Below the pieces are notes generated by a model that was given only the letters and a program-made list of their open reading frames with translations, searched no databases and was not told the DNA's origin. Positions 30,167 to 37,868 of a stretch of 64,000 bases of DNA are shown here, piece by piece. The position numbers and the translations under genes are program-made. Numbering within the stretch: position 1 is the first letter of the stretch; each line of letters starts with the position of its first letter. Source of the DNA: an uncultured bacterium (GTDB lineage: Bacteria; Actinomycetota; Acidimicrobiia; Acidimicrobiales; VFJN01); contig CAVWNW010000022.1 in assembly GCA_963756425.1 (NCBI GenBank), positions 187,722 through 251,721 on the forward strand. Reading direction: 5' to 3'.

Positions 30167-30420
30167 CCGACTCCTCGCCACGTTCTCCCAGACACGCGCC
30201 GAAGGGCCATCGGCTCAGCCCATCGAACCGCTCACCGAGCGCGAAGAACGGTGCTCGTGACCGTTGCCCCCGGCCGAACCACGCCGAGATCGCCGACGAG
30301 CTGCACATCAGCCTCAGCCCGTCAAGACCCACATCGCAAGCCTCATGACCAAGCTCGCAGCACGAGACCGCGTCGAGCTGGCGATGTGGGCCTACGAGAC
30401 CGACCGGATCATGCGGCTGA
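30167..30420 (+). pseudogene. Relic C-terminal LuxR HTH of a NarL-type response regulator
   Basis: EPLTEREE / VLVTVAPGRT / AEIADELHISLS / VKTHIASLMTKLAARDRVELAMWAYET across shifted frames; no receiver domain. Confidence 0.75.
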
Positions 30421-30461
30421 CAAGCCGCCGCTGCGTGCCTCGACCTGGCCACAATGGCTCG

Positions 30462-30968
30462 ATGACCGAGGTGATCCTGCGCCCGATCCAAGAAGCGGAC
30501 CTGGCCGACTTGTGCCGGTACTCGACTGACCCGGAGGCGGCGGGGGTGTTCGAGTGGACGGGCTTCGAGGACCCGAAGGCGATGCGACGGCGCTGGGAGG
30601 AAGACGGCTGGCTCGGTGCCGAGCACGGGCGGCTGGCCATCATGAGCGGGGACTCGCTCGCCGGGAACGTGAGCTACAAGGACCGCTCGCCGTGGATGAC
30701 AAAGGGGGCGATCTATGAGATCGGGATTGCCTTGTTCCCGGAGTATCGGGGTCAAGGGGTGGGGACGGCCGCCCAACGCCTGCTGGTTCAGTACCTGCTC
30801 GACACCATGCCGGCGCATCGGATCGAGGCGCACACCGAGCCCGAGAACATTGCCGAGCAGCGGGCGCTGGAGAAGGTTGGCTTCGAGCGTGAAGGGGTGC
30901 TGCAGCAAACTGTATTCCGGGCTGGAAAGTGGCGCGACAGCATCATGTACGCGCTGATCCGAAACTGA
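30462..30968 (+). CDS. GNAT acetyltransferase (RimJ/RimL-like)
   Basis: EIGIALFPEYRGQGVGT, NIAEQRALEKVGFEREGVL. Confidence 0.9.
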   Translation: MTEVILRPIQEADLADLCRYSTDPEAAGVFEWTGFEDPKAMRRRWEEDGWLGAEHGRLAIMSGDSLAGNVSYKDRSPWMTKGAIYEIGIALFPEYRGQGVGTAAQRLLVQYLLDTMPAHRIEAHTEPENIAEQRALEKVGFEREGVLQQTVFRAGKWRDSIMYALIRN

Positions 30969-31077
30969 CGGACAGATCCGGCGGGGTCGGGGCGTTCGAA
31001 GCGATCCAGACGTCGTGCTCCGGCACGCCTGTGGACAGGGCTGACTCCGGGTTGCTGAGCCCTTGATTGGCTTGCTG

Positions 31078-32217
31078 CTACGGCCGCAGCGGCGCGATGG
31101 CCGACGTCGTCGACGAGTTGGTTGGCGCCGTCGGACGGCCGCACGCCATCTCGGGTTGGCGATAGACGGTGCCGTCGGCCGGGATCACGATGTCGCCTCG
31201 GTCGTTGATGTCGTGAGCGACGGTGTCGGTCCGTTCGCCCGGAGCGACGATCGTGGTGTACTTCCCCTTGTCCCAGAGGAAGCCTCGGGTGTTGACGCCG
31301 TTGGGGTCGCCGTAGCCGCCGACGATGCGGCCGCGGTTGTCGATGCGGCTGGGCACGGTGAATGGTGAACCGGGCCGATCGATCCTCGTGAAGCGCCCGT
31401 TGGTCAGCAGGAAGCCTCGCCGTGTGCCGCCGGTGTCGTAGTGGCCGACCATCTGGCCGCGATCGTTGATGCCGGAGACCGTTGTGCCCTCGGCCCCGGG
31501 GAAGTCGATCGGGGTGAACCTGCCGCTGCGCATCACGAAGCCGCGGAGCCGACCGGTCTCGTAGTACGCGTAGGGGTCGAGGCCGGGGACCGCCTCGATG
31601 AAGGCTCCGACGACGTCGCCCCGATCGTTGACGCCGAGGGGCTGGGTCAGGGCGGCGCCGGGGGCATCGATGGTTGTCACGTCGCCACGCTGCGACACGA
31701 ACCCATGGACCGTCCCGAAGGGCAACCTGCCCCGCGTGCCCGGGACAGCGTCGGCTTCGATGTACTGGCCCACGACCTCAGTCCGGTCGTTGACGTCGTA
31801 GGCCAGGGTGAGGCGAGCGCCAGGGACATCGATCCGCGTGTGCCTACCCCGGCTGTCGCGCAGGACGGCGTGGTTTCCGACGATCGGATCGAAGCCAGGG
31901 GAGTCGGGCATGGCCCCGGCCTCGTAGTAGGCACCCACGGCCTGGCCCCGGTCGTTGATGCCGAAGTACGTGGTCGCTCGGGGATCGGACGAGGCGTCAG
32001 AGGGTGGCGCCAATGCTGTGAAGTCACTGCCGCGCAAGACCAGGTTGCCGCACGTGTCGGCTGGCGACAGCTCGCGGTCGGCGCCACGGCCCGGCTCCGC
32101 GAGGGGATCCGCCCCGTCGAGCGACGAGCAGGCCACGGGCAGCACGGACAAGGCGACGGCAGCCCCGAGCGCCTTCAACCCACGCCTTGTCCCATGTGGT
32201 CTACCCGGCGAATCCAT
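31078..32217 (-). CDS. Secreted lipoprotein with HAF-type extracellular repeats
   Basis: Lipobox-like PVAC; six repeats GINDRGQAVG, DVNDRTEVVG, GVNDRGDVVG, GINDRGQMVG, IDNRGRIVG, DINDRGDIV, several followed by HGF/RGF. Confidence 0.85.
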   Translation of the reverse strand: MDSPGRPHGTRRGLKALGAAVALSVLPVACSSLDGADPLAEPGRGADRELSPADTCGNLVLRGSDFTALAPPSDASSDPRATTYFGINDRGQAVGAYYEAGAMPDSPGFDPIVGNHAVLRDSRGRHTRIDVPGARLTLAYDVNDRTEVVGQYIEADAVPGTRGRLPFGTVHGFVSQRGDVTTIDAPGAALTQPLGVNDRGDVVGAFIEAVPGLDPYAYYETGRLRGFVMRSGRFTPIDFPGAEGTTVSGINDRGQMVGHYDTGGTRRGFLLTNGRFTRIDRPGSPFTVPSRIDNRGRIVGGYGDPNGVNTRGFLWDKGKYTTIVAPGERTDTVAHDINDRGDIVIPADGTVYRQPEMACGRPTAPTNSSTTSAIAPLRP

Positions 32218-32453
32218 GCTGGCGTCCTTCCGACCATCGAAGCGATGCCCACCCGCTGGATGTTCGGATCCACCTCGACGGCCGGATCAGTCTGCGCACG
32301 GTGGTCGGAGCGGCTCGATGGCCACTGCCGTCATCCGAAGTCCGGTTCGGATACGTAGGGGTGGCGGGACCGGTCGTGCATCCGCGACGGCTCCACGCCC
32401 CACAGGGCTGACACCTCGACCGATCCCCTCACACACCGCTCAGGAGATCAACG

Positions 32454-32714
32454 ATGCGAAAGACTCTTCTCTCCCTCGGGACGACCGCAGCCGCGGGCGC
32501 AACCGCGCTCATGCTGGCTACGGCTGCCTCCCCGCCGAACGCCGAGGGCGAGTCCGACACGGCGACCGTCTGCAACACAGGGAACGGCGAGAACGTGTGC
32601 GTCGCGGGCTTGGACGTCGACCTCGTGTCCGCGAGGCCGGCGAACGACAAGGAGGCGCACGTACCGATCTGGTTCACGTTGAGCATTGGCGGCGCCGAGG
32701 CCGCTGGCTTCTAG
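32454..32714 (+). CDS. Small secreted peptide A (86 aa); C-terminus resembles the N-terminus of a tail-tube protein
   Basis: RBS AGGAG; leader MRKTLLSLGTTAAAGATALMLA; CNTGNGENVC; ends VSARPANDKEAHVPIWFTLSIGGAEAAGF. Confidence 0.8.
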   Translation: MRKTLLSLGTTAAAGATALMLATAASPPNAEGESDTATVCNTGNGENVCVAGLDVDLVSARPANDKEAHVPIWFTLSIGGAEAAGF

Positions 32715-32764
32715 TCCTTGCCGGCTGACATCCAACGGATGGCTACACCAGTCAGGAGATCACT

Positions 32765-33010
32765 GTGGGATTGCGAAAGACCCTGCTAACCCTCGGGACC
32801 GCCGCCGCCGCCACCGCAGCGATTGCCCTCACGGTCGAAATGGGCACCTCCCCCGAGGAGGGCCGCCGTCAGGCCGACGAGGGCACCGAGATGAAGGTCG
32901 CCCGTGTCGAGAGGAGCCCCGAGTCCGGGGCCGAGTACGCCTACGCGTGGCCGAAGAAATACACGGGCGTTGGCCTCAAGGCCGACTCCAACGAAGTGGC
33001 GCTCGATTAG
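32765..33010 (+). CDS. Small secreted peptide B (81 aa); C-terminus resembles the C-terminal motif of a tail-tube protein
   Basis: RBS AGGAG; leader LRKTLLTLGTAAAATAAIAL; ends AWPKKYTGVGLKADSNEVALD. Confidence 0.8.
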   Translation: MGLRKTLLTLGTAAAATAAIALTVEMGTSPEEGRRQADEGTEMKVARVERSPESGAEYAYAWPKKYTGVGLKADSNEVALD

Positions 33011-33073
33011 TGGCCGATCACCGGCAGCCGCTCGAGCTAGGCGGCCGCGGCCGTCGTCGTCGGCCCGAGCATC

Positions 33074-34600
33074 GTGGTTGACGTCTCGGCGGGCTCACAC
33101 ACTTCGGGTCGTCCGTTGGCTGGCGAGGATGGTTGCCACGTCTCGTTACTCGCCGACGATGCGCCTCGCCGCGTACGCGAGGTCCTCGATCGGGCCGGCT
33201 ACTCGCGCCAGCGGATCGCGGAGACGCTTGGCGTGGACGACATCCGGGCGCTCGACGGGGTCCCGGGGCCAGTGCTGGTCCGTAGGGTCGGCGAGGGAAC
33301 CCCGCTCGAGCTGCTCATCCGGCTACTTCTCCTCGGCGTAGTTGTCGATCGCGACGCCGCCCGCACCGCCCTCCGTCCGATGACGATCGAGGCGTGGGAG
33401 GCGCTCGGGCTGATCGAGATCACCGCCGGGGTCGTGCGCGCGTCCTACCGGGTGGTGCCTCACGACGACCTGCTGCTCCTCAGCGACTGGCCGGTGTCAC
33501 CGATGCGGCCGCTCCTGCCCGACCATGTGCTCGGGCCGAACCCGTCGGCGTCGCTGCTGGCCAACTTCACGGTCAGGCCCCGCGTCGGCTCGGTGCTGGA
33601 CCTCGGAGCCGGGTGCGGGATCCAGTCCCTGCTCGCCGCCCGCCACGCGGACCGGGTGGTCGCCAGCGACCTGAACCCGCGGGCCGTCACGATTGCGTCG
33701 TTCAACGCCGCGCTCAACCACGTCGCGGTCGACTGCATCGAGGGCGACCTGTTCGAGCCCGTGCGCGGCCAGCGTTTCGACCTGGTCGTCTCGAATCCCC
33801 CCTTCGTGATCTCGCCCACTGCCAGCTTCCTGTTCCGCGACAGCGAGTTGGGAGGTGAAGGGATCGGGCGCACGATCATCTCGAAAGTCGCCGGGCTGCT
33901 GAACGAGCGCGGCTTCTGCCAGCTGCTCACGAACTGGGCGCACATCGAAGGTGTCGACTGGACCGAGCGCATCGAGCAAGCGTTCGAAGGCTGCGGCTGC
34001 AACGCCTGGGTGCTGGCGGTCCATCACGCCGAGCCGGACGTCTACGCCAGCCGCTGGATCCAGCACCTGGAGCGGACCCCCGAGGCCGTCGGTGATGCCC
34101 TGGAGGAGTGGATGCGCTACTACGAGCGCGAGCGCATCAGTGGAATCAGTTGGTGCGTGGTCACGATGCGCCGAGCCACCGGCCCCCGGACCTGGTTCGA
34201 GCTGGACGAGGTGCCGGAGGCCATTCGCTCCCCCGTGGGCGACCACCTGCTGCGCTGCTTCGAGGCACGGGAGCTCCTCGATGGCCTCGGCGACGACGCG
34301 CTCTTGGACCTGCGCCCCCGCCTCGCGCCAGAAACCCGCCTGGAGCAGCACTTCACCCCCGCACCCGAGGGCTGGGCGCCCGGCGAGGCGCAGCTGCGAC
34401 TGACCGGGGGGCTTCCCCTCGATCTCGCGGTGGACGCGGACGTCGCGAACCTGCTGGTCCGCTGCGACGGCAGCCTGCCGCTGCGCGAGCTGCTGGCGCG
34501 CGCGGCCGCAGCCACCGGCGCGCCCGCCGACACCATCGCCCGCCAGGGCGCCGCTGCGACGAGGCATCTCATCGCGGCAGGGTTCCTCCTTCCCACATAG
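33074..34600 (+). CDS. Class I SAM-dependent methyltransferase (HemK/MTS-like) with C-terminal PqqD/wHTH-like region
   Basis: VLDLGAGCGIQ, SDLNPRA, GDLFEPV, VVSNPPF; tail LLVRCDGSLPLRELL...RHLIAAGFL. Confidence 0.88.
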   Translation: MVDVSAGSHTSGRPLAGEDGCHVSLLADDAPRRVREVLDRAGYSRQRIAETLGVDDIRALDGVPGPVLVRRVGEGTPLELLIRLLLLGVVVDRDAARTALRPMTIEAWEALGLIEITAGVVRASYRVVPHDDLLLLSDWPVSPMRPLLPDHVLGPNPSASLLANFTVRPRVGSVLDLGAGCGIQSLLAARHADRVVASDLNPRAVTIASFNAALNHVAVDCIEGDLFEPVRGQRFDLVVSNPPFVISPTASFLFRDSELGGEGIGRTIISKVAGLLNERGFCQLLTNWAHIEGVDWTERIEQAFEGCGCNAWVLAVHHAEPDVYASRWIQHLERTPEAVGDALEEWMRYYERERISGISWCVVTMRRATGPRTWFELDEVPEAIRSPVGDHLLRCFEARELLDGLGDDALLDLRPRLAPETRLEQHFTPAPEGWAPGEAQLRLTGGLPLDLAVDADVANLLVRCDGSLPLRELLARAAAATGAPADTIARQGAAATRHLIAAGFLLPT

Positions 34601-34849
34601 CCCCCCAGTCGATCGTCATAACGGGACGATCACCGAACCGCTGAGCGACGTTCGCGCCCGACCGCTCCGCGCCCTGCACGACGGAGCGACGGCGGAGGCA
34701 CCGAATTGACGACACCCACGCAGAGTCGCGGTCGTTCCCGTCCGTTCATCCCGATACCACCCCACGTCGAGTCACGACGGAATGGCGCGAGGTGACTGCA
34801 GACATACTTCGGATCCTCGTTTAACACGCTCTGACCTGGGAGGAACCTC

Positions 34850-34880
34850 TTGACACAGCGGGCTGTAGCGGTCATAGGGT
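34850..34880 (+). promoter_or_regulatory. Possible sigma-70 promoter for the ferritin-like gene
   Basis: TTGACA(34850-55)-19 nt-TAGGGT(34875-80) with a short dyad ACAGC-GG-GCTGT. Confidence 0.35.
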
Positions 34881-34997
34881 GGGTTCCGCGTGATGTCAGG
34901 TGTGCCACGTCGCGCGGAGCAATAGCGACAAGAGCAGGTCCCTTGGTCGGCGTGTGGCCGCCGCCTCGCGTCGGAGCACTCACGGCAGGAAGAAAAG

Positions 34998-35603
34998 GTG
35001 AAAGCGGCGATGTCCTTCTTTTCTGATGTCAAAACGGTGGAAGCGCGAGTGCAGGAAGCGATGCAGGACGGCCCGGTCACGCCGTATTACACGCTGCCGC
35101 TCGACAAGGTCTACGAGGTGCTAAACGGAGCTTTGGCATCCGAGATTGTCTGTGTGCTTCGTTACAAACAGCATTACTACATGACGACGTCGATCCACCA
35201 AGAGCAGCTCCAAAACATGTTCAAGGAGCACTGGGAGGATGAAGAAGAGCACCTAGAGCGGATCGCCGAGCGCATCAAGCAACTCGGCGGCGTTCCCAAC
35301 TTAGATCCGAACGACATTTCTACGCGTGCGTTCTCAAGGTTTGAGAGCGGGCACACGCTCGCCGATCTCCTCAAAGAGGATCTCCTAGCCGAACGGGTCG
35401 TGATCAAGATATACGGCGATATCGTCACCTTCTTCGGGGACGCCGACCCGGTCAGCCGCCGGATGTTCGAGGATATCCTCGAAGACGAACAAGATCACGC
35501 AGACGAAATCGCGGACCTGCTCTACACGGTCGATCCCGAGACCGGTGAGACCATCGAGCAGTTTACGGGAGACTCCACGTTCAAACGCGTGAACCTCTCG
35601 TAA
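34998..35603 (+). CDS. Ferritin-like/bacterioferritin protein
   Basis: LNGALASEIVCVLRYKQHY, EEEHLERIAERIKQLGG, EDLLAER, DEQDHADE; start may be ATG 35010. Confidence 0.88.
   Translation: MKAAMSFFSDVKTVEARVQEAMQDGPVTPYYTLPLDKVYEVLNGALASEIVCVLRYKQHYYMTTSIHQEQLQNMFKEHWEDEEEHLERIAERIKQLGGVPNLDPNDISTRAFSRFESGHTLADLLKEDLLAERVVIKIYGDIVTFFGDADPVSRRMFEDILEDEQDHADEIADLLYTVDPETGETIEQFTGDSTFKRVNLS

Positions 35604-35847: not shown

Positions 35848-37868
<2,021 letters not shown>

Follow-up and report, generated by a model that had tools for sequence, protein, structure and literature searches.

Candidate exported small proteins carrying pieces of a foreign injection-system tube protein, next to a methyltransferase gene, in an uncultured Acidimicrobiales bacterium

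Known systems and the locus under study

Contractile injection systems (CIS) are widespread, and the family PF06841 (Phage_T4_gp19) comprises the T4 gp19 and CIS tube proteins. Solved tube homologues include Alg1 (7adz/7aeb), All3324 (7b5h), Afp1 (6rao) and Pvc1 (6j0b). Here, a locus from an uncultured bacterium of the Acidimicrobiales is described, which lies in a stretch of 64,000 nucleotides (positions 187,722 to 251,721 of contig CAVWNW010000022.1, assembly GCA_963756425.1), called the window in the following. It consists of two small genes in tandem, ORF1 and ORF2, followed by a methyltransferase gene, and the cargos of the small genes are letter-identical pieces of the main tube protein of Solirubrobacteraceae. 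In contrast to CIS tube proteins, only 19-25 residues of the tube are present per gene; these form no tube fold and are fused to a putative signal peptide. Also the setting differs from that of CIS tube genes: the genes do not lie in a CIS or tail cluster, their neighbors are a HAF-repeat protein and the methyltransferase, and no tube or sheath gene was found in the genome of the window (G000; assembly of 4.64 Mb, 89% complete).

A second group of related systems is formed by the ribosomally synthesized and post-translationally modified peptides (RiPPs), in which the fold of the RiPP recognition element (RRE) is used by the enzymes to hold leader peptides. With RiPP precursors and their RRE-dependent enzymes (PqqD; TbiB1) the locus shares short precursors, a conserved leader, variable C-termini and an adjacent enzyme with a predicted RRE fold. 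In contrast to these systems, the leader is Sec-like and the methyltransferase resembles HemK and RsmC and belongs to no described RiPP class. Furthermore, instead of a diversified core the precursors carry frozen copies of a foreign structural protein.

For the enzyme itself, the lysine methyltransferases Rv2067c and Rickettsia PKMT1/PKMT2 (5dnk/5doo) are similar in architecture, since here a class I methyltransferase is also followed by a C-terminal winged-helix domain of the DUF7782 fold. However, no sequence match to Rv2067c, PKMT1 or PKMT2 was obtained at E <=0.001.

Two further systems resemble the small proteins in parts. Superinfection-exclusion proteins, for example the lipoprotein Ltp of phage TP-J34, are small and exported, and an action in the envelope against the incoming tail-like device has been proposed. 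To our knowledge, these are not copies of a structural protein of the attacker. The small ORFs described here have no homology to them, and their own function is putative. The pro-peptide pheromones of Gram-positive bacteria (Phr, AimP type) are composed of a signal peptide, a variable pro-region and a conserved active C-terminal peptide. This layout is shared by the small ORFs. In contrast to Phr and AimP, the pieces described here comprise 19-35 residues and have the sequence of a foreign protein, and no receptor gene is present nearby.

Tube pieces of foreign origin are under strong purifying selection

The genes on which the analysis is based are the following.

32454..32714, plus strand: ORF1, 86 aa, composed of leader, variable linker and tube piece
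32637..32711, plus strand: cargo of ORF1, 25 aa, equal to tube residues 2-26
32771..33010, plus strand: ORF2, 79 aa from TTG 32771 (81 aa from GTG 32765), composed of the leader MRKTLLTLG..., linker and tube piece
32945..33001, plus strand: cargo of ORF2, with the sequence AWPKKYTGVGLKADSNEVA of tube residues 116-134
G000:C22:37582-37776 (L012:1498-1692), outside the window, minus strand: third gene, 65 aa, with its tube piece at 37582-37641
33074..34600, plus strand: methyltransferase, 508 aa, with DUF7059, a HemK/RsmC-type catalytic domain containing NPPF, and DUF7782 (Pfam, NCBIfam)

A search with the ORF1 protein yielded 119 candidates, 42 of them proteins at E <=0.01, and 32 of these were examined. 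Two kinds of relatives were present, proteins with a similar leader (P0001-P0012, P0030) and PF06841 tube proteins of about 148 aa, which start with MPANDKEAHVPIWFTLSIGGAEAAGF. Residues 62-86 of ORF1 are letter-identical to residues 2-26 of the tube proteins P0014-P0017. The corresponding search with ORF2 gave 27 proteins among 46 candidates. Here, it is the C-terminal segment of 19-21 residues that matches, and AWPKKYTGVGLKADSNEVA is identical to residues 116-134 of the tube protein P0028; ORF2 ends with ...LD at the point where the tube protein runs on as VEGITLCHEGFEI. On profile level these short pieces are hardly visible: ORF2 reaches 16.5 bits against PF06841, which is below the cut-off of 28.2 and covers profile positions 103-123 only, and ORF1 gives no match.

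When the tube protein was searched by tblastn against the whole genome of the window, three places only were found, namely ORF1, ORF2 and the third gene. The latter starts with a signal-peptide-like leader of its own, in which an AVA-N site is present, continues with a linker carrying a C-x3-C pair, and ends with ADSNEVAVEGITLDHSGFEIS, the last 20 residues of the tube (128-147). Its relatives are P0070-P0072, and its neighbors are a glutamine synthetase and a periplasmic binding protein, with no methyltransferase nearby.

The position of the pieces within the tube protein was derived from a structure model (pLDDT 82). This displays a disordered arm (residues 1-12) and two strands (13-18 and 23-27); further on, a long strand (107-122), a loop (123-134) and the final strands (135-141 and 144-147) are seen. 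According to this model, the piece of ORF1 would represent the N-terminal arm and the first hairpin (strand 1 and the start of strand 2), that of ORF2 the end of the long strand together with the loop, and that of the third gene the loop and the last hairpin. For tubes of this kind, a stacking of the layers via beta-loop intercalation and an attachment helix as the contact between sheath and tube have been described (PMC12546770).

Where the tube protein comes from was revealed by a scan with one genome per species, in which 28 loci matched. In 25 of these a full-length protein is encoded that is 84-96% identical to P0028, and 24 of the 25 are named Solirubrobacter or Solirubrobacteraceae, the other one Actinomycetota bacterium. 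The remaining loci are two distant ones (45% and 36%) and one in a metagenome-assembled genome (MAG) of Thermoleophilaceae, which matches residues 127-148 only. In Solirubrobacter soli the cluster contains Pvc16_N, sheath, tube, a second gp19-like gene and CIS_tube+LysM, with the tube directly after the sheath. Because of this sheath-adjacent position in a CIS cluster, the P0028-type protein is the main inner-tube protein. All four Solirubrobacter genomes searched contain the tube and distant gp19-like paralogues (28-33%), and no extra pieces of high identity were detected in them.

The genome of the window belongs to a different class than the Solirubrobacteraceae, and the relatives P0007 (of ORF1) and P0057 (of ORF2) are named Acidimicrobiales. 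A search of this genome with PF06841 gave nothing above the cut-off, the best score being 14.7 bits at ORF2, and the sheath family PF04984 had no match. The tube query likewise found nothing in ten of ten genomes of the same genus. Among 401 genomes of the class, 27 had any match, at an identity of <=38%; among 401 genomes of the order, 77 had any match, again <=38% apart from G595. The totals for the order and for the methyltransferase distribution given below include the unpublished genomes G504, G758, G604 and G024, only as weak-match non-carriers. Since the genome was found without the tube protein itself, the pieces are foreign in origin, and both their identity and this origin are shown by the data. 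Phages were covered as well, and neither donor nor target was found among them: the nearest tube relative in IMG/VR is 35% identical (one locus), and the best matches in a phage collection are 30-31%, in six Streptomyces phage records.

One side observation concerns G595 itself. At G595:C401:858-977, a 401-aa frame contains a 58% match to tube residues 56-94 (39 residues). This match is weak (E 0.007) and represents the sole hint of a piece from the middle part of the tube anywhere.

The comparison with two genomes of the same family, G465 and G467, demonstrates strong purifying selection on exactly the tube pieces. In ORF1, the piece differs between G000 and G465 at 9 of 75 nucleotides, all silent, without a single amino-acid change. 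The linker of the same gene is essentially randomized (pN 0.61, pS 0.47), and the leader is constrained (pN 0.26, pS 0.50). For ORF2, 10 of 57 nucleotides of the piece differ between G000 and G467, which results in two conservative changes (W/Y and K/R). Invariant columns are confined in the family alignments to the tube piece and to a short leader motif, which is SLG for the ORF1 family and M-R for the ORF2 family. A recent gene conversion or transfer was considered as the cause of this identity and is ruled out, because the silent divergence is roughly even throughout the gene and about the same in the piece as in the rest. At its 3' limit the piece is less strict. In the ORF1 family it ends with a stop after GF, a degenerate FFPEFYPD or FFKEATGFDSE; in the ORF2 family the stop lies mostly after NEVAVE or NEVALD, and P0054 and P0055 continue to the end of the tube.

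Pieces of high identity were found in three of the 80 family genomes, which are G000, G465 and G467. G465 harbors N-type and C-type pieces on two contigs and G467 a C-type piece, and the own tube genes of both are only 27-30% identical to the Solirubrobacter protein. At the methyltransferase site, G000 has an N-type and a C-type gene in tandem. In G465, a lone N-type gene is located between the HAF-repeat gene and the methyltransferase gene, and a C-type gene precedes a second paralogue of the methyltransferase gene. The orthologous methyltransferase gene of G467 is preceded by a C-type gene. Among contigs of soil metagenomes, two runs contain the tandem form again, at 98-99% identity, and one contig, from a more distant relative, runs from 32698 straight into 33123 and is hence without ORF2. 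The differences in copy number and cargo at the same site expected in the first-pass annotation were thereby observed. Within each type, the C-terminal piece is extremely conserved instead of being diversified.

The combination of a signal peptide and a tube piece is not restricted to this family. In the Thermoleophilaceae MAG (L075:1399-1575, also L042), a signal-peptide-like MRKLFLL...AATA is followed directly by a 22-residue peptide up to the C-terminus of the tube; this MAG contains the one piece and no matching full tube gene. P0065, P0080, P0086, P0089 and P0097 also combine a signal peptide with a C-terminal tube piece, each with other leaders. Accordingly, at least two bacterial classes show this design, with leaders that are unrelated. 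In P0090, a signal peptide precedes the C-terminal ~60 residues from another tube lineage, and this suggests that the design is not confined to one tube. In P0095, the segment LK[PA]DSNEVAVEG is present twice in tandem. A metagenome scan with ORF1 gave nine loci, eight full tube genes and L116, and no further DNA of the small-gene family; L116 is a weak leader-only match, in which a motif search found no tube motif.

Duplicated upstream module, leaders and methyltransferase

Upstream of both small genes the same module is present, and upstream of the first one a divergent neighbor is located.

32406..32450, plus strand: upstream module of unit 1 (motif positions, repeat finding, alignment, genome pattern search)
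32723..32762, plus strand: duplicated copy of the same upstream module in unit 2
31078..32217, minus strand: HAF-repeat protein, 379 aa, with a lipoprotein-like N-terminus, divergent upstream neighbor (NCBIfam TIGR02913, E 2e-10)

The first-pass annotation had described two units sharing GGCTGACA, ACACC, TCAGGAGATCA as ribosome-binding site (RBS) and the leader at a period of 317 bp, and all of these motifs were located as given there. In unit 1 they lie at 32406-32413, 32433-32437 and 32440-32450, followed by the ATG at 32454; here, TCAGGAGATCA provides the ribosome-binding site AGGAG 6 nt 5' of the ATG. In unit 2 they lie at 32723-32730, 32745-32749 and 32752-32762, followed by GTG 32765 and TTG 32771. 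The base at 32771 is changed from T to A in contigs of three of four soil metagenome runs, so that ATG is found in these relatives and position 32771 is the likely start of ORF2. Both ORFs open with RKTLL[ST]LGT and an Ala-rich hydrophobic stretch.

Repeat finding detected an upstream 18-nt repeat of 89% and a 47-nt repeat of 79% in the leader codons; the spacings were 312 and 317. When the two units are aligned as DNA, their identity is 0.63-0.85 per 20-column block from GGCTGACA to about leader codon 16 and drops beyond it to 0.3-0.7, the background for G+C-rich DNA. The pattern GGCTGACA-N(5-40)-TCAGGAGATCA occurs in the 4.64 Mb of the genome twice on the forward and not at all on the reverse strand, and the reversed control pattern gave 0 hits; the genome-wide motif search proposed in the first-pass annotation has thus been run. 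By tblastn, the best non-self match of ORF1 in the genome is the leader of ORF2 (E 0.004), with the next at E >=0.12, and the two leaders are mutual best matches. Taking the repeats, the drop in the alignment and the genome-unique pattern together, the two-unit observation is real and the boundary between constant and variable part is abrupt. The idea of a constant 5' module and leader with a replaced 3' end has therefore held, rather than a gradual decay of similarity.

Other parts of the first-pass annotation need revision. That the units share nothing after the leader is right for the sequence, as BLASTP of ORF1 against ORF2 aligns 7 residues only (RKTLL[ST]), but not for the origin, because both 3' ends stem from one foreign tube protein. 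That the cargos are CIS tube-protein fragments from another bacterial class is what had been missed. A cassette-type diversification does not fit the data: each unit has its own ribosome-binding site and start, the genome contains only two copies of the module, and the cargo is invariant within each type, whereby reverse transcriptases and recombinases were not searched for. From the sequence, the locus is best explained as a small operon-like module, in which two paralogous genes for putatively exported small proteins are followed by the methyltransferase gene. Both small genes would have been produced by a tandem duplication of a unit comprising the promoter/RBS region and the signal peptide.

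The leaders were judged by eye for signal-peptide features. An n-region with MRK, an Ala-rich h-region and an AXA-type site are visible in ORF1, the third gene, the L075 peptide, P0009 and P0065. In ORF1, the leader MRKTLLSLG...ATAA covers about residues 1-25; its arrangement MRK / TLLSLGTTAAAGATALMLA / TAA-S, as well as the AVA-N of the third gene, fits a type I signal peptide. Across the genes in which the design recurs with other leaders, a Lys/Arg n-region, a hydrophobic core and an AXA-type site are visible in most. The linker of ORF1 is variable with a conserved Cys pair; leader motif and tube piece, in contrast, are retained in the homologues P0002-P0012. A Cys pair would fit an exported protein.

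The catalytic domain of the methyltransferase resembles HemK, RsmC and GenN. Matches to the protein at E <=1e-20 are present in 11 of the 80 family genomes, whereas copies of at least 67% identity occur only in G000 (one), G465 (two) and G467 (one full and one cut by the contig end), which are exactly the three carriers of the pieces. In all four copies with available upstream sequence, a gene composed of leader and piece is located directly upstream. In G465:C216 (L092/L131) the stop of the N-type gene even overlaps the start of the methyltransferase gene (GTGA), and overlaps of this kind commonly point to translational coupling. The motif RKTxL[ST]LG of the leader follows the same distribution, being present in five of five methyltransferase-linked genes and in neither of the two unlinked genes with known context.

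For DUF7782, a model (pLDDT 85.4) displays three strands followed by three helices. Among the matches listed, the highest is that to Rv2067c of M. tuberculosis (8hkr; Z 11.6). The TbiB1-leader complexes (5v1v/5v1u) superimpose with Z 10.7 and an rmsd of 2.1-2.2 over 84-86 of 84-88 residues, and a lasso B1 protein with its leader (6jx3; Z 10.5), PqqD (Z 10.4) and Rickettsia PKMT2 (Z 9.2) are similar as well. As judged from this model, DUF7782 appears to adopt a PqqD/RRE-type fold, which is evidence on the level of the fold only; HMMER gave no PqqD family match at E up to 10. The predicted complex of methyltransferase and ORF1, calculated from alignments, has a score of 0.06 against a mark of 0.32 and is evidence neither way. 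No papers on DUF7782 or DUF7059 were found in the literature.

Since the four Solirubrobacter genomes contain no match to the methyltransferase beyond one 38% match to the catalytic domain in one of them, its co-transfer from the CIS cluster was considered and is ruled out by this near-absence. In PADLOC, which covers known anti-phage defense systems, the methyltransferase matches mad2 over the catalytic domain only (E 5.6e-19), and none of the families matches ORF1, ORF2 or the third protein. PHROGs gave nothing for the small ORFs, and Pfam and NCBIfam gave sub-threshold tube matches only. Among the flanking genes examined (30264-35603), no leader protease or dedicated exporter was found.

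Regarding the surroundings, an antisense HAF-repeat frame is likewise located upstream of the N-type unit in G465. Further upstream, the very N-terminal end of the GNAT acetyltransferase ORF at 30264-30968 (plus strand) weakly matches a LuxR/GerE helix-turn-helix; probably the listed start lies too far upstream, or the end of an upstream gene is fused in frame. A scan of 32150-33250 gave no promoter-like and no terminator-like site, whereby the sigma-70 consensus poorly suits a G+C-rich organism, and Rfam had no match over 31800-33400 at E up to 1. To look for an empty site, the downstream ferritin-like gene was used as an anchor within the genus. Only 43-44% copies in three of five genomes were found, so that the synteny was not traceable.

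Proposed mimicry of the tube ends and competing explanations

Because the pieces stay frozen in their identity to a foreign protein, mimicry is favored as the best-fitting reading, with a probability of about 0.4: exported, possibly methylated peptides would mimic the ends of a foreign CIS tube. Here, the methyltransferase would dock on the common RKTxL[ST]LG leader and methylate the precursor in the cytoplasm. The precursor would then be exported via the Sec pathway and the leader removed. The freed or wall-associated peptides might mimic the two ends of the tube and compete for the binders of these ends, which are the next tube layer, a Pvc16-type cap or the sheath. The outcome would be an interference with, or a sensing of, co-resident Solirubrobacteraceae injection machines. 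That the N-terminus of the tube is accessible also counts in favor of this reading. Export, modification and target, and thereby the reading as a whole, are inferred. In listings and the openings of abstracts on CIS or tail-tube mimics, secreted fragments, decoys and superinfection exclusion, no such genes are described.

Several points weigh against this reading. The tube assembles in the cytoplasm of the producer, and as long as the particle is extended, the sheath encloses it. The main gap of the reading is the route by which an exported peptide would reach a tube assembled inside another cell. The leaders have the form of Sec-type signal peptides, but this was read by eye and secretion is putative; in ORF2 the n- and h-regions are present, and the c-region LTVEMG|TSP is without a canonical AXA site. 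The third gene and the Thermoleophilaceae gene have unrelated neighbors without a methyltransferase, and a search of the Thermoleophilaceae MAG for the enzyme gave no match. Due to this, the methyltransferase is not essential to the design. Also the RRE-like domain alone is no proof of a peptide substrate, because a group of DUF7059-MTS-DUF7782 proteins of ~40% identity (L123, L124, L125, L127 and L132; sister genus) always has a cupin-like gene of ~165 aa upstream and no small ORF. The genomes are 89% (G000) and 82% (G465 and G467) complete, and a full tube gene could be hidden in unassembled DNA. Contigs with full tube genes are present in all four soil runs examined (X1, X2, X3 and X5; window 31900-33500), as concluded from loose ends running on GITLCHEGFE and from one contig with 264 letters between the pieces. 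Nevertheless, Solirubrobacteraceae are common in soil, and the co-occurrence of the locus with tube genes is for this reason weak evidence. Finally, none of the 24 listed runs with the locus is an RNA run.

Among the competing explanations, a RiPP-like product survives best. Here, the small ORFs would be precursors whose leader is recognized by the RRE of the methyltransferase, and the tube-derived cores would have served as raw material for an antimicrobial or a signal unrelated to injection systems. The constant leader and variable core, the co-inheritance of the methyltransferase (three of 80 genomes, all of them carriers), its position directly downstream in four of four cases with the GTGA overlap in G465, the RRE/PqqD fold predicted for DUF7782 and the confinement of RKTxL[ST]LG to the linked genes are what would be expected from such a system. 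The leaders, in contrast, resemble signal peptides of the Sec pathway, and neither a protease or transporter nor any further RiPP enzyme was observed beside the genes. The design also occurs without the methyltransferase, and the catalytic domain matches HemK, RsmC and GenN instead of a described RiPP methyltransferase family. The pieces are letter-identical to the tube despite a saturated silent divergence, which is unexpected if they were free to adapt. As a full account, this explanation is considered unlikely. The modification step overlaps with that of the mimicry reading, and the RiPP-like reading is partly supported and compatible with mimicry. The likeness to RiPP arrays put forward in the first-pass annotation can thus be kept for the co-inherited methyltransferase with its RRE fold, but not for the leader, which appears to be of the Sec type and belongs to no known RiPP leader class.

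A further explanation would be an exaptation as self-assembling beta-hairpin peptides, exported as building blocks for a surface layer, fiber or pore of the producer, akin in logic to small secreted amyloid-forming proteins and without any contact to injection systems. This would be in line with the nature of the pieces, which are hydrophobic, Gly/Ala-rich strand-turn-strand segments of a protein that polymerizes via beta-sheet contacts, and with the putative export signals. However, it would explain neither why different, partly overlapping pieces of one protein are maintained in three separate genes, nor why every position keeps its identity to the foreign tube, nor the patchy distribution in three of 80 family genomes, and it is regarded as quite improbable.

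That the ORFs are decaying relics of an acquired Solirubrobacter-type tube gene, left over by chance in frame with hydrophobic N-termini, would agree with the varying end of the piece between homologues (GF stop, FFPEFYPD, FFKEATGFDSE) and with the many truncated or frameshifted tube ORFs in metagenome assemblies, but is very improbable and largely refuted by the selection pattern, with 0 amino-acid versus 9 silent changes in the piece beside a randomized linker and a constrained leader (pN 0.26 versus pS 0.50), by the ribosome-binding site and start of each unit, by the same design with unrelated leaders in at least two classes, and by the tandem form kept at 98-99% identity in two other soil runs.

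Returning to mimicry, a wider form of this reading would be that soil Acidimicrobiia and, independently, some Thermoleophilia export exact copies of tube ends in order to jam, cap, mis-trigger or detect the machine of a competitor, with a dedicated tailoring by an RRE-methyltransferase in one of the lineages. In this extent, it is considered doubtful.

We know of no dedicated counter-measure against the injection machine itself, as opposed to its toxins, and full-text literature searches revealed none. If the mimicry acts on the foreign machine, it would mean that bacteria use sequence mimicry of a structural protein of a rival, and such a counter-measure on protein level would be a new class of inter-bacterial defense or offense. 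The pieces would then also indicate which parts of the tube are vulnerable, and they would represent natural peptide inhibitors or probes for the injection systems now engineered to deliver proteins. Even with another function, the pairing of an RRE-methyltransferase with signal-peptide precursors would be a new one in peptide tailoring.

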